Below, piece by piece: positions 3,111-64,000 of a stretch of DNA of 64,000 nt (position 1 is its first letter; each line of letters starts with the position of its first letter). The position numbers were made by a program, and so were the translations under genes. Under the pieces are notes generated by a model. It saw nothing but the letters and a program-made list of their open reading frames with translations. It had not been told where the DNA came from and ran no database searches. The DNA is from Patescibacteria group bacterium. Its GTDB lineage: Bacteria; Patescibacteriota; Patescibacteriia; Patescibacteriales; UBA12465. The DNA is taken from positions 93,459-157,458 of the forward strand of contig JBBACQ010000001.1 of NCBI GenBank assembly GCA_041656935.1. The letters run 5' to 3'.

Positions 3111-3698
3111 TTAACGTTTACTCCATTGCGGAGCCTTACGCGCTTTCTTAAGCCCCGGTTTCTTTCTTTCTTTCTTACGAGGATCTCTGGTAATATAACC
3201 ACTAACTTTTAAAATTGCCCTAAATTCTGGATCATATTTTACTAAAGCTCGAGCTATTCCGTGTCTAATTGCATCTATCTGACCTAAAACACCACCACCT
3301 TTTACCAGTATTGAAAAATCGAAATCTTTTAATTTAGAAACTAACTTTAGGGGTTGTAGAGCCACACTAGAATTTTCTTCTCTTTTAAAATATTCTAAAG
3401 AGCTAAAACCATTAATAGTAAAATTACCTTGCCCTTTTTCATACATTCTAACTTGAGCTACGGCTGTTTTTCTTCGCCCCACAGCTTCAATATATTTTCC
3501 AGAAATAGTTTTATTTTTAGCAACCACAACATCAGCTACTTCTTTGGTTGAAGGTTTAACAACTTTACTTGTTTTTGCTTTTACTTCTTTTTCTAAAACA
3601 ACCTTATCTTTTTTAATAACTGGTTTTTTAACACTAGGCTTCTTATCAGTTGTCTTACTAATAGTTGTATTCTTCTTGTTTTTTTTGACTTCTGCCAT
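3111..3698 (-). CDS. rpsI: 30S ribosomal protein S9 with a Lys-rich N-terminal extension of about 65 aa
   Basis: Core GRRKTAVAQVRMY...GGGVLGQIDAIRHGIARAL...KKARKAPQWSKR is canonical S9. Preceded by rplM as in the L13-S9 operon. Confidence 0.95.
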   Translation of the reverse strand: MAEVKKNKKNTTISKTTDKKPSVKKPVIKKDKVVLEKEVKAKTSKVVKPSTKEVADVVVAKNKTISGKYIEAVGRRKTAVAQVRMYEKGQGNFTINGFSSLEYFKREENSSVALQPLKLVSKLKDFDFSILVKGGGVLGQIDAIRHGIARALVKYDPEFRAILKVSGYITRDPRKKERKKPGLKKARKAPQWSKR

Positions 3699-6015: not shown

Positions 6016-6621
6016 TTAAACTCGACGAGGTTTTTTAGGACGACAACCATTATGAGGAACTGCGGTTACGTCTTTAATACTAGAGATAATTAAACCATTA
6101 GCATTCAAAGATCTAATAGCAGATTCTCGACCAGTTCCTACCCCAGCTACAAAAACCTTAACCTCTTCTAAACCGAATTCTTCTTTAGCTTTTAAAACTG
6201 CAATTTTAGCAATAATTTGAGCAGCATACGGAGTAGCTTTTTTAGCTCCCTTAAAGCCAGCCATTCCAGCACTGGCCCAAGAAATAACATTACCGGTTTT
6301 ATCTGTTAAGGAAATAATAGTATTATTATAGGTAGCATTGATATAAGCATGGCCAGATTTTATTTTAACCAGCTCTTTTTTCTTTCTTTTTTTGATTAAT
6401 TTTTTCTTACTTCGAGCCTGTTTATTCTTTTCTAACTTTTGTTTAATTTCTTCTGGTAAATCCTCTATTTCGTTTTTATTTTCTTCTTTAGAAATATCAT
6501 CATCGGAAAACAAATCATCATCAACCGAATCATCTTCCAGCGATTGATCATTTTTATTATCAATATCTTTTATTTCTTCTAAAGATTCATCAATTTTTAT
6601 ATCTTTTTTTTCTTCGGTCAT
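6016..6621 (-). CDS. rpsK: 30S ribosomal protein S11 with an acidic N-terminal extension of about 75 aa
   Basis: Core [41 protein letters not shown]...[11 protein letters not shown]...[15 protein letters not shown] is S11. Confidence 0.95.
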
Positions 6622-21368: not shown

Positions 21369-23396
21369 TTAAAATTTAAAGTAAAAAATCATGACTCTAG
21401 AATTATCCACACTATAGACCAGATCAGCTTCTACTCTAACCTCTTCTACGATTTTAGTAAAGCCCCACCAATAATCATTAACCACAAAATAAACACCTTC
21501 AGCCCCAATCTCAGTCATTAATTCTAACATTAATTCCCTGTTAGGGTTCTCAATCATCTTTAAATAGTAGTCATATAATAATCCCCCGGTCTGAACGGAA
21601 TAATAAAGCCAAGGACCGTAATATCTTTTAAAACCATATTCCTTAATAGCGCTAGCCCCTACTTGCTGATTAGCTAAAACAACATAATTATCATTTTCCT
21701 TAACGCTCTCAATAAAGCGCACGGCTGTAAAGTCAGAAGATGAAACTGAAAAAGCACGAGAATTAAAATGATTATCTTTACGGGGATAATTTAAATATAG
21801 CGAGACCAAAAGTAAACCCGATAAAAATATAGAGATAATAATTTTGAAAAGTATTTTTTCTGATTTTATTTTTTTTATAGAACAAATAAAGATCTCATAA
21901 AAAACTGGGATTAAAAACAAAAAAGATAATATTAAAATTCTGCTGGCATAACTCCCTTTATCTATTTGACTTAAAAATGGAAAATCAATAAACAAACTTA
22001 AAAAATATGACAACATTAAAGCCAAAGAATTAAAGTAGAAAATTTTTAATTCCTTAAGGCGATATTTGAAAACAAAAATTGTAGCTAAAGAAAATAGGAT
22101 TAATAAGAACCAATTTTTATTGAGACCAAAAAAATAAATAAAATTTAAAATGGCATTCTCCTGCCCAACTAACCTAGGAACCCAATTAACCAAATTAATA
22201 TTAGGGAAAGAGAATCGGCCACCAGAAAATATTAAAAGTATTGGCAAAACTATAATTTGGCCTAAATAAGCTAAGTATTTTGAAGCATTTAGCAATTTAT
22301 AATTAAATTTTAAGTTCCACTTCCCTATTTTCAGCAAACTTCCATTATTTTTAATAATACCAATGAACAAAATAAAGGTAAAAATAATTGCCGGAACTCC
22401 AGCTAAGGGATGAATAAAAAATATAGCCAAAGCTAAAGAAAATAGAAAGAAAAAATTAGTTTTTTGGGCAACAAAGTTTTTATTAAAAGAAAATATTAAT
22501 AAAATAATTAAAAACAAAAAGGCTAAGTTTTGTGGAACAGTATAAGTAAAAATTGAAAATGGTAAAATTAGAAATAATAATAAGGGCCAAACAGTTTTGT
22601 GGAATCCTCTTTTTTTAAAATTAAAAATAAAGGTTAATGGGATTAATACGGCTGATAAAAATGGAACCAATAATTTATCTAAAGTCTCCAAAGAAAAAGG
22701 CCAAATCTTTAAAAAGAATAATTCTAAGGTATATTGGCCCAGATAATAAATAGTTTTGGGCTCTACAACACCAAATTTTAAAATGTCAGCCAAAACTCGT
22801 TGATGAAGTAATTGATCATAACCAAAGGCAATTTTATAAATAAAAAATGAAACAGAAAAAAATAAGAAATATAACATAAACACAAACAAATATGACCACC
22901 TGCTTTTAAAATAGAAATTTATAAATATGGTTACTATTAAAAGCCAAAGAAAAAACCAGAAATAATTGGGTAAGAATTGCCAAGGAGAAGCAATAGCCGA
23001 GAAACTGCCGGATTTGAAGAAGATTTGAAACAAAAGAAAGAATAGAGATAGAGTTATCACGGGCAAAATAATTTTTAGAAATACAGAAATTCGCAAGGAT
23101 TCGGACAGCGCTGGGGTTCCCTTCCCCTCCCGCGTATAGTCGCTACGCGACATGCGGTCGGCCGGGAATGATAAGGACGGGGAGGGCGAAGCTTGTTGAT
23201 TACCCCTATAAATGCTAAAATAAATAAAGCTATAAGTTAATAATAACGATAAAAATAGAGTAATAATAACCACTAAATCGTTAAATTTATAAAAATAATA
23301 AAAAATAGAGCCGATATTTATAATCAGCGACAAAAATAAAAGGAAAAATAAAAGAAAATTTTTCTTAAAAAGATTTAAAAAAGTATCTAAACTCAT
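21369..23396 (-). CDS. large polytopic membrane protein with C-terminal soluble domain (possible GT-C-like glycan-assembly protein)
   Basis: More than 12 hydrophobic segments, then a soluble tail of about 130 aa. The track start at 23459 overlaps the divergent GT4 gene; I prefer the ATG at 23396 (MSLDTFLNLF...). Contains an in-frame GC-rich insert. Confidence 0.6.
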   Translation of the reverse strand: MSLDTFLNLFKKNFLLFFLLFLSLIINIGSIFYYFYKFNDLVVIITLFLSLLLTYSFIYFSIYRGNQQASPSPSLSFPADRMSRSDYTREGKGTPALSESLRISVFLKIILPVITLSLFFLLFQIFFKSGSFSAIASPWQFLPNYFWFFLWLLIVTIFINFYFKSRWSYLFVFMLYFLFFSVSFFIYKIAFGYDQLLHQRVLADILKFGVVEPKTIYYLGQYTLELFFLKIWPFSLETLDKLLVPFLSAVLIPLTFIFNFKKRGFHKTVWPLLLFLILPFSIFTYTVPQNLAFLFLIILLIFSFNKNFVAQKTNFFFLFSLALAIFFIHPLAGVPAIIFTFILFIGIIKNNGSLLKIGKWNLKFNYKLLNASKYLAYLGQIIVLPILLIFSGGRFSFPNINLVNWVPRLVGQENAILNFIYFFGLNKNWFLLILFSLATIFVFKYRLKELKIFYFNSLALMLSYFLSLFIDFPFLSQIDKGSYASRILILSFLFLIPVFYEIFICSIKKIKSEKILFKIIISIFLSGLLLVSLYLNYPRKDNHFNSRAFSVSSSDFTAVRFIESVKENDNYVVLANQQVGASAIKEYGFKRYYGPWLYYSVQTGGLLYDYYLKMIENPNRELMLELMTEIGAEGVYFVVNDYWWGFTKIVEEVRVEADLVYSVDNSRVMIFYFKF
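23091..23196 (-). repeat. GC-rich palindromic element inserted in-frame in the membrane-protein gene
   Basis: Imperfect terminal inverted repeats CTTCCCCTCCCG (23121-32) and CGGGGAGGGCGAAG (23178-91); inner hairpin CGCGTA-7 nt-TACGCG. Shares 22-nt and 18-nt blocks with 47258-47279 and 47355-47372. Confidence 0.75.
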
Positions 23397-23425
23397 ATCT
23401 ATAATATAGCAAAAAATACAAATAT

Positions 23426-24523
23426 ATGAAAATTGCCCAAGTGGTCTGTGTCTACCCACCCTATGCCGGCGGAATTGGAACCTCGGCCCTAAAATTACAA
23501 AAAACTTTGTCTACCCAACACGACAGCTCTGTTTTTACAATTAGGGACAAACACGGGATAGCCGAAGATGATAAAAAAAATAATATAATCCGATTAAAAC
23601 CATTTCTTAAATTAGGCCATGGAGCAATCTTGTGTTCCCTATTAAAAAGATTAAAAAACTTTGATGTTATTTACTTCCACTACCCTTTTTTTGGAACTGG
23701 AATAATAATCTGGCTATTTAAAATTATACACCCTAAGAAAAAACTGATAATTCATTACCACATGGATGTCCATCACAAAAATGTTTTATTCCAAATATTA
23801 AGCTGGCCCGAAGAAATTATCAAGAAATCATTATTCAAAAAAAGTGAAATCATCGTTAGTGCTTCATTAGATTATATAAAGCACAGTCAAATAAAAAATA
23901 TTTATAAAAAATACCCAGAGAAATTTAGAGAGGTTCCTTTTTCGGTTGACACCAACGAATTCAAACCGCTGGAAATGGATAGAAAAGAAAATATAGTATT
24001 ATTTGTTGGTGGGCTAGACAAGGCTCATTACTTTAAGGGGGTTGATATTTTAATTAAAGCAATAAGCGAAATAAAGGATATTGAGCTAGAATTAAGAATT
24101 ATTGGTGAGGGTGAATTAAAAAATGAATTTAAAAATTTAAGCCGAGATTTAAGCGTTGAAAATAGAATAAAATTTTTAGGAAAACTTGATAAAAAAGGCT
24201 TAATAGAACATTATCAAAAAGCTAAATTTTTGGTTTTGCCATCTATTAACAGTAATGAAGCCTTTGGTATTGTCTTAATAGAAGCTATGGCTTGTGGCAC
24301 TCCAGTTATCGCCTCTGATTTACCGGGAGTCAGAACCGTTTTTGAAAATGAAAAATCGGGATTATTAGTGGAACCAAAAAATATTGAAGATTTAAAAAAT
24401 AAAATTGAGTTAATTTTACAGAATGAAGAAAAACAAAAAAATATGAGCCAAGAGGCCCATAGATTAGCATTAGAAAAATATGCAGAAGATATAATTGACT
24501 CTAAAGTTTTAGAATTATTTTAA
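23426..24523 (+). CDS. glycosyltransferase family 4
   Basis: GT-B fold signature near the C-terminus: LPSINSNEAFGIVLIEAMACGTPVIASDLPG. Confidence 0.85.
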   Translation: MKIAQVVCVYPPYAGGIGTSALKLQKTLSTQHDSSVFTIRDKHGIAEDDKKNNIIRLKPFLKLGHGAILCSLLKRLKNFDVIYFHYPFFGTGIIIWLFKIIHPKKKLIIHYHMDVHHKNVLFQILSWPEEIIKKSLFKKSEIIVSASLDYIKHSQIKNIYKKYPEKFREVPFSVDTNEFKPLEMDRKENIVLFVGGLDKAHYFKGVDILIKAISEIKDIELELRIIGEGELKNEFKNLSRDLSVENRIKFLGKLDKKGLIEHYQKAKFLVLPSINSNEAFGIVLIEAMACGTPVIASDLPGVRTVFENEKSGLLVEPKNIEDLKNKIELILQNEEKQKNMSQEAHRLALEKYAEDIIDSKVLELF

Positions 24524-30647: not shown

Positions 30648-30806
30648 AATGGTTTGTTTTAATAATAATTAGTTATTTTATTATACTATAATAAAGTTTT
30701 GGAGTAAAGAATAACCTTTTTGTGCTATTTTTTTAGGAAAAATACCCACTTGACCATCTCTGGCGAAAAAAATTAGCAAACTAAAGTTTTTTTTAAAAAT
30801 AATAAT

Positions 30807-30959
30807 TTTTTCATGCCACTTTTTTAGAAAAAGTGGCCCAAAAATCGCCAGCAATTCAAAATTTCAGGACATTCGCTATAAAGTTTTTCATGCCACTTTT
30901 TTAGAAAAAGTGGCCCAAAAATCGCCAGCAATTCAAAATTTCAGGACATTCGCTATAAA
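30807..30959 (+). repeat. tandem duplication, 2 x 77 nt (arm + GCCAC hairpin)
   Basis: 71 nt starting at CATGCCAC (30812 and 30889) are identical by my alignment. Each unit has the hairpin GCCACTTTTT-TAG-AAAAAGTGGC (30815-30837 and 30892-30914). Confidence 0.9.
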
Positions 30960-31062
30960 AGCTAGTAAAATTTAGAACTCGGATGAGCTTCGCTCATCCT
31001 CAAACAGCTAAATTTTACACGCTTTTTACGCTTATGTCTAATCTGAAATTTTTCAAAGCTGG
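30925..31062. repeat. extended imperfect palindrome A (about 138 nt), candidate MITE or structured RNA
   Basis: Outer arms CCAGCAATTCAAAATTTCAGGACATTCGC / ACGCTTATGTCTAATCTGAAATTTTTCAAAGCTGG; inner stem 30965-30975/31008-31018 (11 bp, all Watson-Crick); apical hairpin GGATGAG-CTTCG-CTCATCC. Confidence 0.7.
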
Positions 31063-31090
31063 CAAGTAAAAAAAATTAATTTCTTGTTTT

Positions 31091-31225
31091 CTTGCGAACA
31101 TTAAAAAATTTTGGGGAAATTGCGAGTGTAGAAACCTTGCAAAATTTGGTTGTTTGAGGCGTAGCCGAGTTCTAAATTTTGCTAGGTTTCATAACGAGCA
31201 ATCCAAAATTTTTTAGTTCGCTAAG
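31091..31225. repeat. extended imperfect palindrome B (about 135 nt), inverted homologue of A
   Basis: Outer arms 31091-31114/31203-31225; inner stem 31131-31147/31174-31190 (17 bp, 1 mismatch). The reverse complement aligns to A through AAAATTTAGAACTCGG...CCTCAAACA.C.AAATTTT. Confidence 0.7.
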
Positions 31226-31344
31226 TTTTTTTGGACACTTTTTTTGTTAAAAAAAGTGTCTTAATAAATAAGTAAGTATACAAAAAACTTTAGTTCGCTA
31301 TTTTTTGGATGCTTTTTTTATTAAAAAAGTGTCTTAATAAATAA
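31214..31344 (+). repeat. diverged tandem repeat, again with 77-nt period, each unit carrying a hairpin variant
   Basis: TAGTTCGCTA at 31214 and 31291. Hairpins GACACTTTTTTT..AAAAAAAGTGTC (31234-31260) and GATGCTTTTTTT..AAAAAAGTGTC (31308-31333); both are followed by TTAATAAATAA. Confidence 0.75.
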
Positions 31345-31383
31345 TTCAAGTTTTAAATATTCGTAAGAAAAATATTTAAATCA

Positions 31384-32413: not shown

Positions 32414-33457
32414 ATGACTATCCTAGAAATAAAAACTAAATATAATGAGCTAGAGGCTAAATTATCTGACCCCGAAATAATATCCAATCATGAAAAAATA
32501 AGCCAAATCGCTAAAGAACACTCGGGATTAAAAAAATCTTATGATTTAATATTGGAAATAGAAAAAATAGAAAAAAATATTATTGATAACCAAGAATTAA
32601 TTGACAACGACCCCGCCTCAGAATTAGGAAAAATCGCCGAAGAAGAATTAAAAGAATTGAAAGAAAAAAAAGAAAAATTAGAGCAAGAATTACATGCTGA
32701 ATTAAATCCCGCTGACCCCAATGATAAAAGAAGCGTCATTGTTGAAATTAGAGCTGGAGCCGGAGGAGATGAAGGCGCCTTATTCACGGCTGAATTATTC
32801 AGAATGTATTTGCGTTTTGCTGAGAAGATGAATTGGAAAACTGAAATATTAAGCTCTAGTGAAATTGGAATTGGTGGCTACAAGGAAATAATATTTTCCA
32901 TCGAAGGGAATAATGTTTACGGTTATTTAAAATATGAAGCCGGAACTCATCGAGTTCAAAGAGTCCCGGAAACTGAAAAACAAGGACGAGTTCACACCTC
33001 TACTTCTACTGTAATGGTTTTTCCAGAAGCCGAAGAGGTAGATGTTAAAATAGAGCCAAGTGATATTAGAATTGATACCTTCTGCTCTTCTGGCCCTGGC
33101 GGACAAAGCGTTAACACTACTTATTCAGCTATTCGTATTACTCACCTTTCCACCGGACTGGTAGTTAGTTGCCAAGATCAAAAGTCGCAACATCAAAACA
33201 AAGAAAAAGCTATGCAAATTTTACGCTCTCGTTTATTAGCTAAAATTGAGGAAGAAAAATCAGCCAAAGAATCACAAGAAAGAAAAGAACAAGTTGGTAA
33301 AGGTGATCGAAGCGATAAAATTCGTACTTATAATTTCCCCCAAAATCGAATCACTGATCATCGAGCCAATAAATCTTGGCACAATATTGATGAAATAATG
33401 AATGGAAATATTGAAGAAATGATAATAGAAATAAAAAATGAAAAGAATAAAAATTAA
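32414..33457 (+). CDS. prfA: peptide chain release factor 1
   Basis: RVQRVPETEKQGRVHTS (PxT motif) and SGPGGQSVNTT (GGQ). Confidence 0.9.
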   Translation: MTILEIKTKYNELEAKLSDPEIISNHEKISQIAKEHSGLKKSYDLILEIEKIEKNIIDNQELIDNDPASELGKIAEEELKELKEKKEKLEQELHAELNPADPNDKRSVIVEIRAGAGGDEGALFTAELFRMYLRFAEKMNWKTEILSSSEIGIGGYKEIIFSIEGNNVYGYLKYEAGTHRVQRVPETEKQGRVHTSTSTVMVFPEAEEVDVKIEPSDIRIDTFCSSGPGGQSVNTTYSAIRITHLSTGLVVSCQDQKSQHQNKEKAMQILRSRLLAKIEEEKSAKESQERKEQVGKGDRSDKIRTYNFPQNRITDHRANKSWHNIDEIMNGNIEEMIIEIKNEKNKN

Positions 33458-33460
33458 AAA

Positions 33461-34339
33461 ATGAAAATATCAGAAATAATATCAGAAATAGTAAACGATT
33501 TCAAAAAAAATAATATTAATAATCCTCAATTAGAAGCTTTAGCGATTGCTTCTTTTGTTTTAAAAATAACACCAGAGAAAATAATTGGCCATTCAGAAAA
33601 AAAAATAAATCCTCAATCAATAAAAAAAATAAGGAAAATTTATAAAAAAAGATTGGAAAACTGGCCGTTAGCCTACTTAATAGGTAAGAAAAATTTTTAC
33701 AACCTAGAGTTTAAAGTTGATAAAAATGTTCTTATTCCTAGACCAGAAAGCGAATTAATAATTGATGAGGTTTTAAAAAACGACTTCTCCAAAGAAAAAA
33801 CAATAATTATAGATGTCGGCACAGGGTCTGGCTGTCTTATTATTACTTTAGCTGATCTTCTAAAAAAAGACGGAAATATTTGTTTTCTAGCCATCGATAA
33901 GAGCAGAAAAGCCCTAAAAATAGCCCGACAAAACGCCAAAAAACATAATTTAAGGGATAAAATAAAGTTTATCAAAGGCAATTTACTGAAACCGATTGAT
34001 AAAAAAATAATAGAAAAAGAAACAAACATTATAATAATAGCTAATTTGCCCTACTTAACTAAAAAGGAGATTAGAAATTCTGCCAGCATTAAAAAAGAAC
34101 CCCGGAAGGCTCTATATGGTGGAAGAGATGGACTAAAATATTATGAAAAATTATGGAAACAAATCAAAAAATTAAAGAACAAAAATTCTAAGATAATTGT
34201 TTATCAAGAAATAAATGATTGGCAAGTAGAAAATTTAGAAAAAATTATTACAAAAAAAATGAAGCCAACAAAACCTCATTCTAAAATAACGGAAGATTTA
34301 TTTAAACAACGAAGATTAATAATCACCACATTGGAATAA
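33461..34339 (+). CDS. prmC: release factor glutamine N5-methyltransferase
   Basis: IIDVGTGSGCL (SAM motif) and ANLPY (variant NPPY); downstream of prfA. Confidence 0.85.
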   Translation: MKISEIISEIVNDFKKNNINNPQLEALAIASFVLKITPEKIIGHSEKKINPQSIKKIRKIYKKRLENWPLAYLIGKKNFYNLEFKVDKNVLIPRPESELIIDEVLKNDFSKEKTIIIDVGTGSGCLIITLADLLKKDGNICFLAIDKSRKALKIARQNAKKHNLRDKIKFIKGNLLKPIDKKIIEKETNIIIIANLPYLTKKEIRNSASIKKEPRKALYGGRDGLKYYEKLWKQIKKLKNKNSKIIVYQEINDWQVENLEKIITKKMKPTKPHSKITEDLFKQRRLIITTLE

Positions 34340-35603: not shown

Positions 35604-36617
35604 TTATTTGGTTGCTAAAATACTTCTCTTATAAGAATCTAAATTGTCTAGAGCGATACCCGTTCCTTTGGCTACACATAATAAAGGATCATCAGCAATA
35701 TAAGCTGACACACCTAAAGCTTGAGCAAATAATTGATCGATATTCCTCAACAAAGCAGTTCCACCAGTTAAAACTATGCCCTTATCAATAATATCAGCTA
35801 TTAACTCAGGTGGTGTTTGTTGAAGTATTTTTTTAGCTGTATTTAGAACAACTTCTAATTCTCCAGAAATAGCTGAGGTAACATCATTACTATTAACCTC
35901 GATGGTTTTTGGAAGACCACTAACAACATCCCGACCATTTATTTCCATAAATAACTTATTTTCTTCATCTAAAAACAAGGCTGACCCAACTTTTATTTTC
36001 ATTTCCTCGGCGGTTCTTTCTCCAACAACTAAACCATATTTTTTTCGGACATACTCTAAAATAGCTAAATCTAATTTATTTCCACCCACCCGAACGGAGG
36101 TTGATGAAACTACCCCACCTAAAGAAATAACAGCCATTTCTGAGGTTCCGCCACCAATATCAACCACCATGTGACCAGTGGCCGAACTAATAGGAATATT
36201 AGCTCCGATGGCCGCCGCTACCGGCTCTTTGATAATATAGGCCGCCTTAGCTCCCGCTGCGATAGTAGCCTCAATAACTGCCCGTCTTTCCGTTGATGAA
36301 ATACCAGCCGGAACAGCTACCATGACCTCAGGCCTAAAGATTCTGATTTTCCCTAAAGTTTTATTAATAAAATAACGAATCATCGCTTCAGTAGTACGAT
36401 AATCAGCAATAACTCCCTCTTTTAATGGTTTCAAGGCCACAATAGTATCAGGAGTTCTACCTAACATATCTTTAGCTTCGTTCCCGACTGCTAAAACTTT
36501 ATTATCGCCAATAGAAACAGCTACGACACTCGGTTCGTTGATAACCACACCTCTTTTAGGTAGATATACTAAGGTATAAGTTGTGCCTAAATCTATTCCG
36601 ATTCTTTTAACCCACAT
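35604..36617 (-). CDS. mreB: rod-shape-determining actin homologue MreB, second paralogue
   Basis: IGIDLGTTYTLVY...NEPSVVA...MVVDIGGGTSEMAVISLGG...VLTGGTALL. Confidence 0.9.
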   Translation of the reverse strand: MWVKRIGIDLGTTYTLVYLPKRGVVINEPSVVAVSIGDNKVLAVGNEAKDMLGRTPDTIVALKPLKEGVIADYRTTEAMIRYFINKTLGKIRIFRPEVMVAVPAGISSTERRAVIEATIAAGAKAAYIIKEPVAAAIGANIPISSATGHMVVDIGGGTSEMAVISLGGVVSSTSVRVGGNKLDLAILEYVRKKYGLVVGERTAEEMKIKVGSALFLDEENKLFMEINGRDVVSGLPKTIEVNSNDVTSAISGELEVVLNTAKKILQQTPPELIADIIDKGIVLTGGTALLRNIDQLFAQALGVSAYIADDPLLCVAKGTGIALDNLDSYKRSILATK

Positions 36618-36673: not shown

Positions 36674-37930
36674 TTATTCTTTTCTGAGGGCCTCTACTGG
36701 GTCAAGTTTGCCAGCTTTTCTGGCTGGAAGAAGACCAAATAGAACTCCAAAAAACAAGCCGAACAAAATAGCAACCACCAAGGCCTTTAAAGGCACGATA
36801 AATTTCCAATCTAAACCAAAATAATTAGCTCCTAAAAAAATTAAAAAAGAAAAAACCACTCCCAAGACAATCCCCAAAAAAGAACCAATTAAAGTAATGA
36901 GAATTGATTCAATTAAAAATTGGCGCATGATATCAGAAAATTTGGCTCCCACAGCCTTGCGCAAGCCAATCTCTGAGGTTCTTTCAGAAACGATAACATA
37001 CATCACATTTAAAATACCCACTCCGCCAACAACCAAAGAAACCGTAACTATTAATAACAACAAAATAGTAATACTATTAGTTATATCTTTAGATGTTTTT
37101 AACATCTCTTTCATGGTGGTAACTCTAAAATCATCTCTATCGGGATCGGTAATATTATGATTTTCTCGAAGAATTTCTTTCACCACTTCAGAGGTTTCTT
37201 CAGCTAATTCTGGCTCAATTATTTTATGAACCATATACATAAAATAATCAATCCCCATTATTTTTTTCTGTAAAGTTCTTACTGGAAGAAAGACCATAGA
37301 ATCAAAATCGAAACCAATCATAGCTCCCCTTTCCTTCAAAACTCCAACCACCTGATACCGACCTCTTTTTATTGTAATATTTTTACCAATTGGATCTTCC
37401 TCTTTAAAAATATCGCTCGCTACTTTACTACCTAGAACAACTACTTGCGACAAAGAATTATTATCGCTATCAGTAAAAAAATAGCCACTGCTAATTTCTG
37501 ACTTATCAATATTTATATAATCAGGCCCTACCCCAAATAAAAAAATCTTTTTAGTTTCATTTAAATAGGTTAATGTTTCTTGACTGAGTATAGCCCCATA
37601 CCCAGAGGAAACATTATCTAATTTTTTTATATCCTCTAAATCTTTTTCTTTCATGGTAGTAACTTGGACACCACTGGCAATGGCACTGGCGCTATCAGAT
37701 TCAGCTTGCATCCCTTTTTTAGAGCTAGGAACTTTTATTTCGGTTTGAATAATATCGGTCCCGAAGGCTTCTATCTGCCCAATTATCAAACTTCTGATAC
37801 CCTCCCCAGCTGAGAAAACAATAACAATACTAGCAATACCAATAACCATCCCTAAAACAGTTAAGGTGGTTCTCATTTTATTTTTTATCATTGAAATTAA
37901 TGATAATCGGACAATTTCTTTTATTCTCAT
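36674..37930 (-). CDS. ABC transporter permease, MacB/FtsX type
   Basis: N-terminal TM, large extracytoplasmic domain, C-terminal FtsX 3-TM bundle with RTSEIGLRKAVGA. Confidence 0.85.
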   Translation of the reverse strand: MRIKEIVRLSLISMIKNKMRTTLTVLGMVIGIASIVIVFSAGEGIRSLIIGQIEAFGTDIIQTEIKVPSSKKGMQAESDSASAIASGVQVTTMKEKDLEDIKKLDNVSSGYGAILSQETLTYLNETKKIFLFGVGPDYINIDKSEISSGYFFTDSDNNSLSQVVVLGSKVASDIFKEEDPIGKNITIKRGRYQVVGVLKERGAMIGFDFDSMVFLPVRTLQKKIMGIDYFMYMVHKIIEPELAEETSEVVKEILRENHNITDPDRDDFRVTTMKEMLKTSKDITNSITILLLLIVTVSLVVGGVGILNVMYVIVSERTSEIGLRKAVGAKFSDIMRQFLIESILITLIGSFLGIVLGVVFSFLIFLGANYFGLDWKFIVPLKALVVAILFGLFFGVLFGLLPARKAGKLDPVEALRKE

Positions 37931-37936
37931 AAAAAA

Positions 37937-39193
37937 TTATTCATAACTTAAGGCTTCTACTGGCTCTAATTTACTAGCTCGCCCAGCAGGATATAATCCG
38001 AAAACTAACCCTACCAGAGCTGAAATAAATACGGCCAATAAAACAGACACTAAACTAACCACAAAAGACCAATCATATTTTAAAAATGACATCACAACCG
38101 AAATAAGCCAAGAGACAAAAACACCTAAAATAATCCCAATAATTCCTCCTATTAAGGTTAGAAACACAGCTTCTAGTAAAAACTGGCTGATAATATTCTT
38201 GTTAGAGGCCCCAATAGCTTTTCTAATACCAATTTCTCTGGTTCTTTCATTAACGCTAATAAGCATAATATTCATAATTCCAATTCCACCAACAACTAAA
38301 GATATGCCTGCCATTAAAGCTAAAAAATATCTTAAAGCATCAGTGACAGTTTTAACTAAATCTAATAATTCAGTTAAGCTCCTAGCTGAAAAATCATCAC
38401 TGTCACCACTTTGGTCAATTATACCATGATTATCCCTAAGTATTTTTTCAACTTCAGAAATAATTAAATCAACATCAGCTGACTCTTCGGGCTTAAGAGT
38501 AATCATATTTAAATAATTTATTCCAGCAATTGTTTTTTGCATTGTTTTTAATGGCAACAAAACTTTATTATCATAATCGCTAAAAGCAACTTGACCTCTT
38601 TCTTCTAAAACACCAATAACTGTAAAAATCTGTCGATTTATTTTTACTCTTTGACCCACAGCAGTAGAATCACCAAAAATTTCATTTTTCACAGTGCTTC
38701 CTAAAATCACTACCTTGCTCAAAGCATCATTCTCCTCACTACTAAAAAACCTCCCGGAAGATAATTCTCCTCCTTGCGTATCTAAATATCCTTCAGTTAC
38801 TCCCTCTAAATTAGTATCATACGAATTATTTTGAAAAGAAACTGTACCAACTCCATTTACATAGGCCACCATCGAAGAAACTCCAATATTATTTTTATTT
38901 TTTTCTAAATCAACTAAATCATCTAATACTAAAGATGTCACTACTATACCCAAAACTGAAGTTGGCGGGCCCTTATCATCTGATTTTCCAGGAGTAATTG
39001 AGATGGTGTTAGAACCAATTCCTTCAATTTGACCTAAAATTAAACTTTGAGCTCCAGCTCCAACTGACATGATAATAATAACCGAGGCTACTCCGATTAT
39101 TATTCCTAACATGGTTAAAAAACTTCTGACTTTGTTGGCCAGAAGAGATTTAATAGAAGTCCTAAGGGATTGTTTTAAAGATAAAATGTCCAT
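37937..39193 (-). CDS. ABC transporter permease, MacB/FtsX type
   Basis: Same architecture as its neighbour; RTREIGIRKAIGA. Confidence 0.85.
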   Translation of the reverse strand: MDILSLKQSLRTSIKSLLANKVRSFLTMLGIIIGVASVIIIMSVGAGAQSLILGQIEGIGSNTISITPGKSDDKGPPTSVLGIVVTSLVLDDLVDLEKNKNNIGVSSMVAYVNGVGTVSFQNNSYDTNLEGVTEGYLDTQGGELSSGRFFSSEENDALSKVVILGSTVKNEIFGDSTAVGQRVKINRQIFTVIGVLEERGQVAFSDYDNKVLLPLKTMQKTIAGINYLNMITLKPEESADVDLIISEVEKILRDNHGIIDQSGDSDDFSARSLTELLDLVKTVTDALRYFLALMAGISLVVGGIGIMNIMLISVNERTREIGIRKAIGASNKNIISQFLLEAVFLTLIGGIIGIILGVFVSWLISVVMSFLKYDWSFVVSLVSVLLAVFISALVGLVFGLYPAGRASKLEPVEALSYE

Positions 39194-43750: not shown

Positions 43751-44281
43751 TCATCTTTTTTCAAAAACTAAACCACTAGAAACTCCTTTATTAGAACCGA
43801 AAAAATAAAAAGATAAAATCATGAAAAAGGCAATCCAAATAAATTCTAGAAAAAGATTAAGCCAAAAAAATCTATTAAACCAAAAAACTCCAAAATAATT
43901 TTTCTCAAATAAAAATATCAAAAAATAAAGAAAAATATTATAGAAGAAAACTAGAAAAAAACTAAGAGATAAAAAAGAATAAATAGAACGATTAGTAAAA
44001 AAATTATTCCAAACAAAATCAGCTAAAAATAAGGTACATAAAAAAGAAAGGGTGAATAAACCGAAGGGATAGAAGGAAAATATATCCATTACTAAACCAG
44101 AGCATAAAGCGAATATTAAGGAACTCTTATAACCACTAAAAACAAAAAATAGGATAATTATTAATAAGAATAAGTTAATACGGCTAGTAACGCCAGAAAA
44201 GGATCCTAAAAATGATACTTGAAATAAAAAAACCAAAAGGGAAAGAAAGAACAAAATAATAATTCTTCTGTATCTAATCAT
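43751..44281 (-). CDS. mreD: rod-shape-determining protein MreD
   Basis: Small polytopic membrane protein directly after mreC. The track start at 44317 overlaps mreC; the ATG at 44281 (MIRYRR...) leaves a 10-nt gap. Ends in TGA. Confidence 0.6.
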   Translation of the reverse strand: MIRYRRIIILFFLSLLVFLFQVSFLGSFSGVTSRINLFLLIIILFFVFSGYKSSLIFALCSGLVMDIFSFYPFGLFTLSFLCTLFLADFVWNNFFTNRSIYSFLSLSFFLVFFYNIFLYFLIFLFEKNYFGVFWFNRFFWLNLFLEFIWIAFFMILSFYFFGSNKGVSSGLVFEKR

Positions 44282-44291
44282 TTTAAAAAAA

Positions 44292-45095
44292 TTAATTAGG
44301 AATAATAACGGCCACAATATTTAAATTATTAATATTAAACAGGGGTTCCGCACTAATATTTTGCCAAATATCATTAATTTCTTGATTTACATAATTAACC
44401 CGCCCTAAAGCTAAGCCACGCGGAACATCTCTTTCTAAGCCGGAAGTAATTATTCTATCTCCAACACTCACTACTTCTCCTTGAGAAATAAAATTTAGTT
44501 TTATAGATAATCCCAAATTACCTTCAGCTAATCCAACGCTACCAGAAGAATTATTAATGGAAACAGCCATTTTACAAAAATTATTATTAATAAGACAAAT
44601 TCTAGAATTTTTTTCATTAACCTCCACTACTTTTCCAACTATAACTCCCGATTCATTTACTACCGCCAAACCGCTTCTTAATCCCGCCTGCTCTCCTTTA
44701 TTTATAACTAGATTTTGATTATAGTTAGAGAAATTTAAAAGATTGTCTTGCCAAACAATGTTGGCTAAAACATAATCGAAAGAACTATCATCGAAAAAAT
44801 TTAAATATTCCCTCAACTTTTTATTTTCCTCTTCTAACGAATATAATTTAGCTAAATCAACTTCTTCTAATTCTAATTTTTTTTCTAAAATTGTTATTTC
44901 TTCCAATAATTTAGATTTGCTTTTGGTTTTATTATTTAAATTCTTGGATAACTTTTGACCCAGAAAACTAATTGGATGGACTATTTTGGCTAACATTCTT
45001 TGACCCAAGGAAGAAAAACCAACTATATTTAAAAAAACAAGCAGTAAAAAAACCGCTAGAAAAAATTTATATTTTTTGGGATCAATTAGTTTCAT
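44292..45095 (-). CDS. mreC: rod-shape-determining protein MreC
   Basis: N-terminal TM, coiled coil (LEEENKKLREYL), beta-rich C-terminal domain (ITSGLERDVPRGLALGRV). Confidence 0.8.
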   Translation of the reverse strand: MKLIDPKKYKFFLAVFLLLVFLNIVGFSSLGQRMLAKIVHPISFLGQKLSKNLNNKTKSKSKLLEEITILEKKLELEEVDLAKLYSLEEENKKLREYLNFFDDSSFDYVLANIVWQDNLLNFSNYNQNLVINKGEQAGLRSGLAVVNESGVIVGKVVEVNEKNSRICLINNNFCKMAVSINNSSGSVGLAEGNLGLSIKLNFISQGEVVSVGDRIITSGLERDVPRGLALGRVNYVNQEINDIWQNISAEPLFNINNLNIVAVIIPN

Positions 45096-45102
45096 AAAAA
45101 GA

Positions 45103-46146
45103 TTATAAATCTAAAACCATCGTTATCTTTTTTAATAATTCTTCATTAGCAAAGAGACTGCCAGCTCCTCGGACCATAGCTGATAATGGATCTTCAACTA
45201 CGATTACCGGAATTTTAGCTGCTTTAGAAATTAATTTATCTAAACCATAAAGCAAGGCTCCGCCTCCACTCAAATACAAACCATGTTCATAAATATCAGC
45301 CACTAATTCTGGCGGAGTTTCTTCTAAGGTTAATTTAATATTCTCAACCATTTTTACAATTGTCTTTTTTATAGCTTCTCTGATTTGACTGTCGGTAATA
45401 GTTATAGCTGTCGGCAATCCGTTAATGAGATCCTTTCCCCTAATTTCCATGGCTCTTTCTTCGGCAAAAGGAATAATTGAAGCTAAATTTATTTTTATTT
45501 TTTCAGCTAATTGTTCTCCAATTAAAACATTAAAATTATCTCTTATATAATCAATAATATTATTATCCAATTCATTTCCAGCTAGTCTAAGGGACTTCCA
45601 AGAAACAACACCTGATAGAGAAATAACAGCAATATCGGTAGTTCCACCACCAATATCAACTATCATGTTAGCTCTAGGACTGTCCACCGGTAACCCGGCT
45701 CCCAAGGCGGCCGCCATGACTTCTTCGATTAAATAGACCTTACGAGCTCCAGCTGATTTAGCCGCGTCTTCAACCGCTTTTTTTTCTACTTCAGTGATGT
45801 CTAAGGGGATACCAATAATAACTCGGGGACGAGGTAAAAAAGAAAAGCCCTCGCCATGGACTTTATTAATAAAATGTTTAAGCATTTTTTCGGTTATTTC
45901 AAAATCAGAAATAACCCCATCAACTAAGGGTTTAATGGCCTGAATATGACTAGGTGTCTTCCCAACCATTTTTTTAGCATCATGACCGATTTCTAAAATT
46001 TCAGTAGTTTTGGTGTTAATAGCTACTACACTAGGCTCATTAACTACAATTCCTTTTTTATCAACATAAACTAAGGTGTTTTTAGTGCCTAAATCAACGG
46101 CAATATCGTAACCAAAGCTTCCAATTTTTTTGAAAATATTAAACAT
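45103..46146 (-). CDS. mreB: rod-shape-determining protein MreB
   Basis: IAVDLGTKNTLVY..NEPSVVA...IVDIGGGTTDIAVISLSG...YLSGGGALL; heads the mreBCD operon. Confidence 0.9.
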   Translation of the reverse strand: MFNIFKKIGSFGYDIAVDLGTKNTLVYVDKKGIVVNEPSVVAINTKTTEILEIGHDAKKMVGKTPSHIQAIKPLVDGVISDFEITEKMLKHFINKVHGEGFSFLPRPRVIIGIPLDITEVEKKAVEDAAKSAGARKVYLIEEVMAAALGAGLPVDSPRANMIVDIGGGTTDIAVISLSGVVSWKSLRLAGNELDNNIIDYIRDNFNVLIGEQLAEKIKINLASIIPFAEERAMEIRGKDLINGLPTAITITDSQIREAIKKTIVKMVENIKLTLEETPPELVADIYEHGLYLSGGGALLYGLDKLISKAAKIPVIVVEDPLSAMVRGAGSLFANEELLKKITMVLDL

Positions 46147-59696: not shown

Positions 59697-59769
59697 TGCG
59701 CCCAGCAGGATTCGGACCTGCGACCTTCTGCTTAAAAGGCAGCTGCTCTACCAGCTGAGCTATAGGCGC
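59697..59769 (-). tRNA. tRNA-Lys (anticodon UUU)
   Basis: Acceptor GCGCCTA/TGGGCGC, D arm GCTC/GAGC, anticodon loop CTTTTAA, T arm GCAGG-TCCGAAT-CCTGC. CCA is not encoded. Confidence 0.9.
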
Positions 59770-59939
59770 AAATTTATCTAAATAAAACAAATTAGACCAA
59801 CGGTCTATTTATTTAGATTATAATTAAAAAATAAAAATAAATCAATAGTTTTTAGATTAACCATAAACTATGGATAAAAAGTGAATTAATAGTGGAAAAC
59901 AAACTTGATTTAAAAAAGCAGTTAAGATATTATATAAAC

Positions 59940-61325
59940 ATGTCAGAAAAAAATATAAACAACTTAGAGAAACTTCCTCCACAAAACATTGAGGCCGAAC
60001 AGTCGTTATTGGGCTGTTTATTATTGGATAAAGAGGCAATTTTCAAAATAATTGACATTATCCAAGCCGAAGATTTCTATCATAATAATCATAAATTCAT
60101 CTTTGAATCGATGCTTGATTTATTTAATAATCAAGAACCCATAGATATAGTAACCTTATCAAACCGGCTAGAGGAAAAAAAGATGATTCAAAACGTTGGT
60201 GGACGAACTTATTTAGCTCAATTATCGAACACCGTGGCAACCTCAGCCAATACTACTTATTATGCCAACTTAATTCAAAAAAAGGCTACTCTTAGAAGAT
60301 TGCAAGTTTCCGCTAGCGAAATAATGGACCTAAGCTTTGAAGAAGAAAGAGAAATTGATGATGTTTTAGACCAAGCTGAGAAAAAGATATTTGGCGTATC
60401 CAGAAAATATTTAAAAAATTCCTTTTTAGGTATCGATAGCTTATTAACCGAAGCCTTCGAAAGAATAGATGAACTGCATAAAAGAAGCGGAAATTTAAGA
60501 GGGCTTTCAACTGGGTTTTACGATTTAGACAATTTATTAGCTGGTTTACAAAAATCAGATTTAGTAATATTGGCCGCTCGGCCTAGTGTTGGTAAAACAG
60601 CTTTAGCCATGGATATAGCTCGCCAAGCAGCTATAAAAAACAAGGCAGGAGTAGGAATTTTCTCTTTAGAAATGAGCAAGGAACAATTAGTAGATAGAAT
60701 GCTCTGTGCTCAAGCTAATGTTAATTTATGGAAAATGAGAACTGGAAATTTGTCTGATAAAGATGAGGACAGCGATTTTTCAAAAATTGCCGATGCGATG
60801 GGACTATTATCAGAAGCTCCTATTTATATTGATGACTCCCCTAACATCTCAGTTATGGAAATTAGAGCTAAATCAAGAAGACTACAATCAGAAAAAGGAT
60901 TAGGTTTAGTAGTGGTAGATTATTTACAATTAATGGAAGGCCGAGGAAAATACAGTGATAATTGAGTTCAAGAAATATCCGAAATAAGTCGCGGTCTAAA
61001 AGGTATCGCCCGTGAACTGAATATCCCCGTTTTAGCCCTAGCCCAATTATCAAGAGCCGCCGAACAGCAAAGCGGACCAGCCATCCCTAAACTGTCTCAT
61101 CTCAGAGACTCCGGTTCTATTGAACAAGATGCTGATGTAGTAATGTTTATATACCGTAAGGCTGCCGATCGAGCCTATAATATCCAAGATCTCCCTATGG
61201 ACGAGAGATATAAAGCTGAAATCCATATCGCTAAACACCGTAATGGACCTACCGGAAAGATTGATTTGTTCTTTTCTGAAGAAACTGCTAGTTTCAAAAA
61301 TATCAGCAAAACTGGAGACAATTAA
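59940..61325 (+). pseudogene. dnaB: replicative DNA helicase DnaB, single frame interrupted by one in-frame TGA (60963-60965)
   Basis: PPQNIEAEQSLLGCLLLD..., Walker A ARPSVGKTALAMD, VVVDYLQLM, then TGA, then VQEISEISRGLKGIAREL...LAQLSR...LRDSGSIEQDAD...KHRNGPTG. Track ORFs 59892..60965 and 61143..61325 share the frame. The likely true start is ATG 59940. Confidence 0.85.
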
Positions 61326-61380
61326 AATTAATACAGTGGTTACTAACTCAAAAATATTATTTATAATTAAATAGAAAATT

Positions 61381-61656
61381 ATGTTCGGAAAATTAAAACA
61401 ATTAAAAGATTTACGCAGTCAGGCCAAAACTATGCAAAGTGCCTTATCAGAAGAAAAAATTGAAATGGAAAAAAATGGGATTAAACTAAGCATGAATGGC
61501 AATATGGAAATTACTGATTTAAAAATTACTTCCGATTTAAGCAAAGAAGAAATTGCTCGAACTAGTAAAGATCTTTTTAATGAGGCTATCAAAAAAACCC
61601 AAAGGATAATGGCCAAAAAAATGCAAGAAATGGGTGGTTTTCCAGGATTAAATTAG
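61381..61656 (+). CDS. ybaB: YbaB/EbfC family nucleoid-associated protein
   Basis: 91 aa: KQLKDLRSQAKTMQSAL...LFNEAIKKTQ...MGGFPGL; typical size and position next to recR. Confidence 0.85.
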   Translation: MFGKLKQLKDLRSQAKTMQSALSEEKIEMEKNGIKLSMNGNMEITDLKITSDLSKEEIARTSKDLFNEAIKKTQRIMAKKMQEMGGFPGLN

Positions 61657-61666
61657 AGAATAAAAA

Positions 61667-61686
61667 ATCGCACTTTTGGGTGCGAT
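61667..61686. terminator. terminator hairpin between ybaB and the convergent orphan gene
   Basis: ATCGCAC-6 nt-GTGCGAT. T6 follows on the minus strand; AAAATTTT follows on the plus strand. Confidence 0.6.
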
Positions 61687-61692
61687 AAAATT

Positions 61693-62022
61693 TTAAAAAC
61701 AGTTCGCCATTCTTAATACTTGAACTGAAATTTCTTTATCTTGAAATTTTTTATTTTTTGTTGTCAGATCAATTTCTTTTCTAATAATTTTATAATTACT
61801 CCCAGGAGTTAAAGAATTAAAGTTAGAAAAGGCTTTATTATATTGAGATGATTGCTGAGGTCCAATATATTTGACCTCCGACCCGTTCTTAGTATGTCTA
61901 AATTCCTCGAGGTTAATCACCCCCTTGATCTTTCTTCTTTTTCTGGAAAAAAAATTAATGGGCAAAGAGACCTCTTCTCCTAAATTATTCAAAATTACAA
62001 AACGGTCAAAATTGTTGTTCAT
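61693..62022 (-). CDS. hypothetical protein
   Basis: 109-aa ORF with a strong SD (AAGGAG) 7 nt upstream of the ATG and a terminator downstream. I recognise no family. Confidence 0.6.
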   Translation of the reverse strand: MNNNFDRFVILNNLGEEVSLPINFFSRKRRKIKGVINLEEFRHTKNGSEVKYIGPQQSSQYNKAFSNFNSLTPGSNYKIIRKEIDLTTKNKKFQDKEISVQVLRMANCF

Positions 62023-62083
62023 AGAATCTCCTTTGTTCTTTTATTGTTAAAGTAAAAATCTATTTTATATTAATATCTAAAAA

Positions 62084-62698
62084 ATGTCAATACAATATCC
62101 CCAATCTATAGAAAATTTAATAAAACAATTCTCTAAATTGCCTAGTGTTGGAAGAAAAACAGCCGAACGCTATGTTTTTTATCTATTAAATCAAAAAACA
62201 GACCAACTAAGATCTTGGGCCAAGAATATTAATGAAGTATCGGCCGGTTTAAAATTCTGCCAAAAATGTTTTAATTTATCAGAAAAAAGTCCTTGCCAAA
62301 TATGTTCTGATAATAAAAGAAAAGAAAATTTAATTTGTTTAGTAGCTAATCCCCAGGATTTAGTGGCGATAGAAAATACCAAACAATACGAAGGTAAATA
62401 TTTTGTTTTAGGCGGATTAATAAACTCTATAGAAAATTTTGGACCAGAAAAATTGAATATTAAAGCCCTAATTAAAGAAATAAATTCTAAATTAAAAAAT
62501 AATCAAAAAATAGAGATAATATTAGCCCTCAGTCCAACAATTGAAGGAGAGGCGACTTGTTTATACTTACAGAAAATTTTAAAAAATCCTAAAATAAAAA
62601 TAAGTAAATTAGCCCGAGGATTATCAACTGGCGCCAGTTTAGAATACGCTGATGAAAATACCTTAGCTAACGCCCTAAAATTTCGTAGAGATATTTAG
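62084..62698 (+). CDS. recR: recombination protein RecR
   Basis: LPSVGRKTAERYVFYL (HhH), CQKCFNLSEKSPCQICSD (Zn finger), Toprim region. Confidence 0.9.
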   Translation: MSIQYPQSIENLIKQFSKLPSVGRKTAERYVFYLLNQKTDQLRSWAKNINEVSAGLKFCQKCFNLSEKSPCQICSDNKRKENLICLVANPQDLVAIENTKQYEGKYFVLGGLINSIENFGPEKLNIKALIKEINSKLKNNQKIEIILALSPTIEGEATCLYLQKILKNPKIKISKLARGLSTGASLEYADENTLANALKFRRDI

Positions 62699-62703
62699 AA
62701 AAC

Positions 62704-62733
62704 AAAAAAGACTTTTTCCGAAAAGTCTTTTTT
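62704..62733. terminator. bidirectional terminator between recR and rplU
   Basis: AAAAAAGACTTTT-TCCG-AAAAGTCTTTTTT. Confidence 0.65.
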
Positions 62734-62745
62734 GTTTGAAAAATA

Positions 62746-63060
62746 TTAAGAAATTTTTTCTACTTTTATTTGAGTAAATTCTTGACGATGACCAACTGTT
62801 TTTTTATATCTAGTTTTACTCTTATATTTTACAACTAGAACCTTTTTATTTTTTCCTCTAGTTAAAACCTCAGCTTCAACCTTTTCTCCTAAAGATGGTT
62901 TGCCTAAATCAATAACACTCCCGTCGGTTTCGGCTGTCATCAAAGTTTCAAATTTCACCTTTTTTCCAGGTTCAGTGGAGAGTTTTTCTATTTTTAAAAC
63001 ATCACCCTCTTTAACCTTATATTGTTTTCCTCCTGTTTTAATTATTGCTATCTTAGCCAT
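62746..63060 (-). CDS. rplU: 50S ribosomal protein L21
   Basis: MAKIAIIKTGGKQYKVKEGDVLKIEKL...GHRQEFTQIKV. Confidence 0.9.
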   Translation of the reverse strand: MAKIAIIKTGGKQYKVKEGDVLKIEKLSTEPGKKVKFETLMTAETDGSVIDLGKPSLGEKVEAEVLTRGKNKKVLVVKYKSKTRYKKTVGHRQEFTQIKVEKIS

Positions 63061-63103
63061 AAATTTTTAAGTTATTTTTAATAACCATATAATAAAGGAA
63101 ACC

Positions 63104-64000
63104 TTAATTATTGTCAACTCTCACTATGTCAGCCCCCAATTTTCTAAGGCGCTCATCAATTTTTTCATAGCCTCGATCAATCTGATAAATATTATCTATT
63201 TCCGTGGTTCCTTTGGCTATTAAGGCTGCGATAACTAAACCAATCCCGGCCCTAATATCAGGACTAATAAGCTTCTTGCCGTAGAGCTTACTAGGACCAG
63301 CGATAACGACCCGGTGAGGATCGCACATAGTAACATTAGCTCCCATTTGAGATAACATATCAGTCCAAATTAAACGACGATCATAAATGGTTTCATGAAT
63401 TAAGGACATTCCCTTAGCTTGGGTCATTAAAACCGCATAAGGAGACTGCAAATCGGTAGGAAATCCTGGATATTCATGCGTTTGAATGCTATAAGGACTA
63501 AGATTACTGCTTTTTTTAATCTTTATCCAATTTTTTCCAATAGAAAAATTTACTCCGATTTTTTTAAAAACACTTAACAACACCGCCAAGTGTTCGGGCT
63601 CACAATTTTTGATAGTTATGTCCGAGTTTGTCGCCACAGCCATAATAGCGAAAGAGCCAGCCTCAATTCGATCAGGCATAATATTTATATCGCCACCCCT
63701 TATTTTTTTAACTCCCACTATAGTTATCGTTGAGGTCCCAGCTCCACTAATTTTAGCTCCACATTTATTTAAATAATCAGCTAAATATTTTATTTCTGGC
63801 TCCATAGCACAATTTTTTAAAACAGACTTCCCCTCAGCTAAACAAGCTGTCATCATCAAACTTTCAGTCCCAGTAACCGAAACTTTAGGAAAGAAAAAAT
63901 TTCCAGCTTTTAATTTTTTAGCTTTAATGCTATAAAAACGATCTTCAATTTTTATTTCAGCTCCCAAGGCAGAAAAACCGTCTAAAAACAAATCGATCGG
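63104..64000 (-). CDS. murA: UDP-N-acetylglucosamine 1-carboxyvinyltransferase, C-terminal part (5' end beyond window)
   Basis: VSVTGTESLMMTA..., HEYPGFPTDLQ, IYDRRL, IDRGYEKIDERLRKLGA. The frame stays open to position 64000; the track 'M' at 63991 is a TTG. Confidence 0.9.
   Translation of the reverse strand, partial: PIDLFLDGFSALGAEIKIEDRFYSIKAKKLKAGNFFFPKVSVTGTESLMMTACLAEGKSVLKNCAMEPEIKYLADYLNKCGAKISGAGTSTITIVGVKKIRGGDINIMPDRIEAGSFAIMAVATNSDITIKNCEPEHLAVLLSVFKKIGVNFSIGKNWIKIKKSSNLSPYSIQTHEYPGFPTDLQSPYAVLMTQAKGMSLIHETIYDRRLIWTDMLSQMGANVTMCDPHRVVIAGPSKLYGKKLISPDIRAGIGLVIAALIAKGTTEIDNIYQIDRGYEKIDERLRKLGADIVRVDNN

Follow-up and report, generated by a model that had tools for sequence, protein, structure and literature searches.

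An in-frame TGA at a conserved arginine codon of dnaB in a Patescibacteria assembly is most probably a private, non-programmed single-base state

The replicative DNA helicase gene dnaB is essential, and in the assembly considered here its reading frame is interrupted by a TGA codon. The gene lies in a 64,000-nucleotide stretch of a Patescibacteria genome (the window, by which we mean the whole stretch of DNA that was analysed), and it raises a simple question. Is this TGA an evolved feature—a recoded codon, a read-through site, or the boundary between two parts of a divided helicase—or does it reflect a decaying gene, a genuine nonsense allele, or a mistaken base?

Direct reading of the frame from position 59892 gives 357 codons, the TGA at 60963-60965, 119 further sense codons and a TAA at 61323-61325; beyond the TGA, the frame contains neither a second stop nor a frameshift before the TAA. 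The claim of the first-pass annotation that dnaB is a single frame interrupted by one TGA is thus confirmed, the TGA being the sole stop before the TAA. The gene boundaries proposed there require adjustment. The two open reading frames (ORFs) that it listed do share a frame, but the start of dnaB is almost certainly the ATG at 59940 and not the GTG at 59892, because close DnaB homologues all begin at the equivalent of ATG 59940 (MSEKN...) and are all 459-462 aa in length. The gene call on a closely related contig (L001, positions 218-1603; see below) corresponds to window positions 59940-61325. The second listed ORF, 61143..61325, is merely the part of the 119-codon open stretch 60966..61322 that follows its first ATG. 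The features of the locus are as follows.

59940..61325, plus strand: dnaB, replicative DNA helicase; 461 codons with codon 342 counted as sense, ending in TAA at 61323-61325
60963..60965, plus strand: in-frame TGA, codon 342; its first base, 60963, is T in the window and C in relatives (CGA, Arg)
59940..60962, plus strand: upstream piece of dnaB, 341 codons; N-terminal domain, linker, Walker A and Walker B
60966..61322, plus strand: downstream piece of dnaB, 119 codons in the same frame; H3, H4 and K432/R434
60591-60599, plus strand: Walker A (GKT), from translation and alignment to 2r6a
60918-60920, plus strand: Walker B Asp327, from translation and alignment to 2r6a
61044-61055, plus strand: H3 (QLSR), from translation and alignment to 2r6a/2vye
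61104-61136, plus strand: H4 (RDSGSIEQDAD), from translation and alignment to 2r6a/2vye
61233-61241, plus strand: K432/R434 pair, aligning with Geobacillus K418/R420
61143..61325, plus strand: second ORF of the first-pass annotation; begins with an ATG, the first in-frame start after the TGA, 60 codons downstream
59892..59939, plus strand: upstream in-frame extension from the GTG start of the first-pass annotation; probably untranslated

Apart from its open frame, the gene is an ordinary dnaB and a regular member of the DnaB family. Entered with X at codon 342, the read-through translation reaches 542 bits with the NCBIfam equivalog TIGR00665 (cutoff 385.25) and spans profile positions 1-434 of 435; with NF004384 it reaches 535.1 bits (cutoff 525). 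The upstream and downstream pieces occupy contiguous parts of the TIGR00665 profile (positions 1-323 and 328-434, respectively) and score 376.8 and 152.7 bits; either piece alone falls below the equivalog cutoff, and only the joined read-through protein passes it. A 461-aa database protein, P0001, for which the domains PF00772 and PF03796 are recorded, is 99% identical to the read-through DnaB; Patescibacteria/Falkowbacteria DnaB proteins of 459-469 aa that are 75-90% identical to it number in the hundreds. Where the nearest database proteins are named, they are called replicative DNA helicase and assigned to 'Patescibacteria group' or 'Candidatus Falkowbacteria'. Among solved structures, the top match is Geobacillus DnaB (2r6a, E = 4e-127), and the DnaB proteins of Thermus, Vibrio and E. 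coli are also among the best. The N-terminal DnaB domain, the RecA-like C-terminal domain and all of the named motifs are present in the translation; the single departure is that they are not carried by one uninterrupted ORF.

The neighbourhood of the gene is likewise conserved: it reads tRNA - dnaB - ybaB - (109-aa ORF) - recR - rplU, and relatives carry an intact dnaB in the dnaB-ybaB-recR-rplU context. The 109-aa ORF (61693..62022, minus strand) is flanked by ybaB and recR, is oriented opposite to them, and has no Pfam match. It is called identically in four related contigs (L001 1972-2301, L002 573-902, L003 740-1069 and L004 610-939), and is absent from a more distant relative, L012, in which ybaB and recR abut.

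What would the interruption mean for the protein? We infer that truncation at codon 341 would leave an inactive product, one from which H3, H4 and the equivalents of Geobacillus K418/R420 would all be missing; Geobacillus R420, to which window R434 corresponds, we take to be the arginine finger. An active DnaB could hypothetically be restored if the 341-aa N-terminal product were joined by a separately initiated C-terminal product, and both pieces are indeed intact and contiguous in the family profile. However, no in-frame ATG, GTG or TTG occurs for 60 codons after the TGA, and the first such codon (61143) lies past H3 and H4; a product initiated there would be without both motifs, and is therefore not a credible second helicase piece. 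Further, such a division would fall inside the RecA-like core and separate Walker B from H3, and dnaB is unsplit in a contig that is otherwise identical in sequence (L003/L005, described below).

Nor is there a sign of the same split in other genomes. When 185,579 species genomes were scanned with the TGA-specific degenerate pattern AAY TGA NNN CAR GAR RTN NNN GAR ATH WSN MG, no other genome split at this site was found. Recurrent splitting was also considered in the form of short DnaB_C proteins on long contigs, and was rejected: where checked, the short DnaB_C fragments in the database are contig-edge partials, the one example examined (P0164) starting at base 8 of its contig. A protein search whose 141-aa query had the site at its centre brought up fragments alone, none more than 90% identical, and added no observation of the same strain; the 123-aa fragment encoded by L003 is absent from the protein collection. 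We regard a two-piece helicase as the least credible of all the explanations weighed here.

Comparison with other DnaB proteins establishes which residue the TGA replaces. The codon aligns with R335 of Geobacillus DnaB and with R357 of E. coli DnaB (6bbm_A), in which the sequence at the site is IDYLQLMRVPALSDNRTLEIAEISRSLK; the aligned stretch around the TGA in the Geobacillus/E. coli DnaB comparison is ...SDNRTLEIAEISRSLK... Arginine occupies the equivalent position in 29/29 aligned relatives (74-99% identity), and also in the Geobacillus, Thermus and E. coli DnaB structures. The first-pass annotation had placed the TGA at a conserved arginine by comparison with the equivalent stretch of E. 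coli DnaB, and this assignment is borne out.

The ancestral state of the codon can be read from contigs of the same or closely related strains. The most informative is JGI contig Ga0172381_10269349 (L003 = L005, sample 3300014204), which spans window positions 60954..62310 and is identical to the window at 1356/1357 bases. Its sole mismatch falls at position 60963, where the window has T and the contig has C, giving CGA; the frame is open from the first base of the contig to the normal TAA. This contig, which begins just 9 nt upstream of the site, is the only otherwise identical one to reach 60963. A slightly more distant sequence, Logan contig L001 (SRR27710297, 4070 nt, carrying the gene for P0001), shows 98.16% DNA identity to window positions 59723..63791; it too has CGA at the site, and its dnaB is uninterrupted and full length. 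Within dnaB, L001 and the window differ at 22 positions: 19 differences are synonymous, two are missense, and one is the nonsense change. Three other contigs match the window strain fully—L002 (2086/2086) and L011 (3808/3808), both from SRR18595299 and together matching at 5894/5894 bases, and L004 (1227/1227, from ERZ27247350)—over stretches that do not extend to position 60963. Run SRR18595299 evidently contains the exact window strain.

The endpoints of these contigs show some regularity. The short same-strain contigs all break within or just past dnaB, and L003 (60954..62310) and L004 (61084..62310) both stop at window position 62310; since they end at the same position, these two may not be mutually independent. 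The shared contig ends suggest that close strains occur together or that related read sets were re-assembled.

Taken together, the contigs show that CGA is the ancestral codon at 60963-60965 and that the lesion is one base. Because the otherwise identical L003/L005 sequence carries CGA, the TGA is a private one-base state of the window assembly on an otherwise invariant background. The first-pass annotation had read the change as a single CGA-to-TGA transition, and the CGA found in both L003/L005 and L001 agrees with that reading; the comparison with dnaB orthologues of close relatives, proposed in the same place, finds them unsplit, with CGA or Arg at the site.

These contigs also bear on whether dnaB is an ordinary decaying pseudogene, the cell being served by a working dnaB elsewhere in the genome. 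The gene is, formally, interrupted. However, the lesion is single: downstream of the TGA the window and L003/L005 do not differ at all, and the differences from L001 amount to seven synonymous changes and one conservative replacement (the last residue, N to D). The downstream codons are thus without the decay of an old pseudogene, as the first-pass annotation had noted from the sequence. In addition, the gene holds the conserved position that carries intact dnaB in relatives. An old decaying pseudogene was rejected, as several lesions and relaxed constraint after the stop are expected of it and neither is seen; we consider a pseudogene of this ordinary kind highly improbable.

Could the TGA instead be read as an amino acid by design? 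The phylum includes lineages with reassigned UGA, and programmed recoding might take the form of (i) selenocysteine insertion, (ii) genetic code 25, as in Gracilibacteria/Absconditabacteria, (iii) the Mycoplasma code 4, or (iv) a dedicated read-through signal. Such a proposal gains some appeal from stop codon usage: across the 62 ORFs of the window, stops are distributed as 50 TAA, 8 TAG and 4 TGA, and TGA is the rarest, with three true uses among 61 genes once dnaB is set aside. The four TGA stops are those of dnaB, a GT2 glycosyltransferase gene (1969), the ORF at 43751 and a U32 gene (47343); this count matches exactly the first-pass statement that TGA is a rare terminator here, used only at the last three positions besides dnaB. 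The ORF at 43751 (43751..44317), which was called mreD in the first-pass annotation, has no Pfam match.

Stop usage also speaks against recoding. Three window genes genuinely end at TGA, and their extensions past it run for 3, 39 and 7 codons to the next stop. TGA occurs in frame only once in about 19,000 codons of the window: a six-frame stop-to-stop scan of the 64 kb finds no real gene other than dnaB in which two long open stretches are split by one TGA, the remaining TGA-separated pairs being antisense to real genes. A reassigned code (table 4 or 25) was rejected, since it needs many in-frame TGAs at Trp or Gly positions and a TGA that is unused as a stop. The site is Arg in all relatives, not Gly, Trp or Cys; and with CGA in the closest relatives, UGA is not conserved even within the strain. 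A selenocysteine or programmed read-through site was rejected on two grounds, the non-conservation of the UGA and the lack of a stem-loop: the 90 nt from about the UGA fold at -12.2 kcal/mol, against -11.8 ± 2.5 kcal/mol for shuffled sequences (z = -0.15).

Searches for the machinery and for precedents point the same way. The only tRNAs in the window are tRNA-Thr(UGU) and tRNA-Lys(UUU); neither tRNA-Sec nor any tRNA with anticodon UCA was found there. The stretch at 32414..34339 (plus strand) holds prfA, which matches the RF1 equivalog at 485.6 bits and has the PET and GGQ motifs, and prmC, which begins 3 nt after prfA in the same frame; no prfB lies within the 64-kb window. The TGA-specific scan of species genomes described above yielded 5 hits, about the chance estimate, and none in the dnaB frame or context. 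A 35-nt pattern of the site in which C or T was allowed is absent from GTDB representative genomes, and has one match only in JGI metagenomes, the CGA contig. A literature search retrieved no precedent for programmed stops in cellular dnaB, nor for UGA/RF2 peculiarities in Patescibacteria. We consider programmed recoding close to refuted.

In other respects, the window (31% GC) is densely filled with housekeeping genes, whose frames are intact when read with the standard bacterial code. Several of these genes show features of their own. The ORF for ribosomal protein S9 (3111..3698, minus strand) is 195 aa long, with the S9 domain only at residues 74-195, and that for ribosomal protein S11 (6016..6621, minus strand) is 201 aa long, with the S11 domain at residues 90-200; either these proteins have long N-terminal extensions, or their start codons have been called too far upstream. 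The alanyl-tRNA synthetase (7585..9486, minus strand) has only 633 aa, with the catalytic and second additional domains present; bacterial alanyl-tRNA synthetases are typically roughly 870 aa. A 696-aa ORF with a GTG start (21369..23459, minus strand) has no Pfam match at E <= 1e-5, and its 5' end overlaps that of a divergent GT1 glycosyltransferase gene (23426..24523) by 34 nt; one start codon of this pair has probably been called too far upstream. There are two full-length MreB paralogues (35604..36617 and 45103..46146, both on the minus strand), the second of which adjoins mreC (44292..45095). Between the MreB genes lie a MacB-type ABC transporter and two adjacent 418-aa FtsX-family permease paralogues (36674..39193).

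One part of the window stands out as non-coding. Between rmlB-like and rmlC-like genes is a 737-nt stretch, 30648..31383, in which we found no ORF of at least 60 aa and no Rfam match. It contains a 77-nt tandem duplication (30804-30880 and 30881-30957, 99% identical) with the hairpin GCCACTTTTTTAGAAAAAGTGGC in each copy, further repeats with 73-77 nt spacing at 31201-31344, and nested imperfect inverted arms centred near 31075. One possibility is a repeat or MITE-like element; another is a terminator cluster.

We now turn to the nature of the TGA allele itself. It may be both real and predominant in the sampled population, the cells surviving by leaky UGA read-through, by a second DnaB-type helicase, or by extra wild-type genome copies. 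Several observations are in keeping with this. The assembly itself reports T at 60963, and the rest of the 64 kb shows no signs of sequencing error; C-to-T change at CGA is common as a spontaneous mutation, and dnaB has four CGA codons; and the complete absence of downstream decay fits an event only generations old. UGA is, moreover, the leakiest of the bacterial stop codons. Against these stand (i) the CGA in the otherwise identical sequence of another sample (L003/L005), (ii) the Pfam scan of the 60 other window ORFs, which found no second DnaB_C protein, and (iii) the retention of Arg342 in all of the aligned relatives and in distant DnaB proteins, such that Trp inserted by read-through would probably harm function.

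A fourth argument comes from exact look-ups of the products that a predominant TGA allele would leave in sequence databases. Neither the 341-aa product (from ATG 59940), the 357-aa product (from GTG 59892) nor the 60-aa tail has a record in the collection; that is, among 153 billion gene positions, there is no recorded product ending in ...YSDN and no 60-aa tail. With no truncated product on record, the TGA allele is therefore untraceable to any other assembly. (Exact look-ups of a neighbouring histidine-kinase-like ORF and of IleRS also gave no record, probably owing to differing start-codon calls.)

On balance, we think it unlikely that the nonsense allele is real and predominant. More specific still, and very unlikely in our estimation, is a TGA that truly predominates in living cells which make the helicase only through low-level UGA read-through or suppression at the conserved Arg codon. 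Were it true, a natural bacterium would be briefly (or stably) dependent on the leakiness of a stop codon for its replication, a dependence possibly tolerated owing to the very slow growth of Patescibacteria.

The explanation that we prefer is that the stop is a private, non-programmed single-base state and not an evolved feature, to which we assign a probability of roughly 0.85. The functional gene would encode a 461-aa DnaB with Arg342, in a low-GC, Falkowbacteria-like Patescibacteria genome; in the window assembly alone, a C-to-T change at 60963 would have turned the conserved Arg342 codon from CGA to TGA. Two causes can be envisaged. Firstly, the T may have entered as an error in the consensus or base call, or as a minority allele taken up by the assembler; this is somewhat the more likely cause, and by itself carries rather more than half of the total probability. 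Secondly, the T may belong to a real nonsense allele that arose extremely recently in the population sampled; this cause carries a little over a quarter.

The preference for an error or a minority allele follows from selection: under purifying selection, a null allele of an essential gene is very unlikely to be predominant, and as dnaB is essential, a fixed real allele is the less likely for it. Neither is such an error far-fetched, given that 5.8% of random substitutions in dnaB create a stop and that random error is blind to function. What weighs against a simple error is the clean remainder of the window, in which no other gene is broken, as would not be expected if the assembly were error-prone throughout. 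The position of the ancestral site in TCGA also led us to consider a hot spot of mutation or a miscall related to methylation; TCGA is moderately under-represented (132 observed vs about 185 expected). The ranking of the first-pass annotation, in which a base-call error or strain variant and a recent nonsense mutation stood ahead of read-through and a two-piece helicase, is supported by these results, the last two having found no support.

The biological weight of this private TGA is small, and its value lies in annotation quality: the gene is best annotated as a dnaB with a probable single-base error or very recent nonsense variant. The TGA should not be cited in favour of an alternative genetic code, of recoding, or of a lineage that has lost DnaB. 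Should the allele prove fixed, it would be a modestly interesting case of an essential gene relying on UGA leakiness.

Three comparisons place the locus among known systems. When set beside the DnaB family (TIGR00665; PF00772 and PF03796; Geobacillus stearothermophilus 2r6a/4esv, E. coli 6bbm), the window protein is alike in length and two-domain layout, and has Walker A, Walker B, H3, H4 and the K/R pair near the C-terminus; the sole difference is that the Arg342 codon reads TGA in the window assembly. With code 25 of Gracilibacteria/Absconditabacteria and with bacterial selenocysteine, the locus shares an in-frame UGA in a conserved gene of a Patescibacteria-type genome. It differs from them in that UGA ends three genes of the window and stands in frame once, replaces Arg and not Gly or Cys, is followed by no hairpin, and is absent from the closest relatives. 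Finally, beside the single-base nonsense lesions of metagenome-assembled genomes, the locus has nothing distinctive: there is one transition at a CGA codon, no further damage, and an intact allele in another sample. The lesion type—a CGA-to-TGA transition—is a familiar one and involves no new biological mechanism; the case is notable only in that the gene hit is an essential one.
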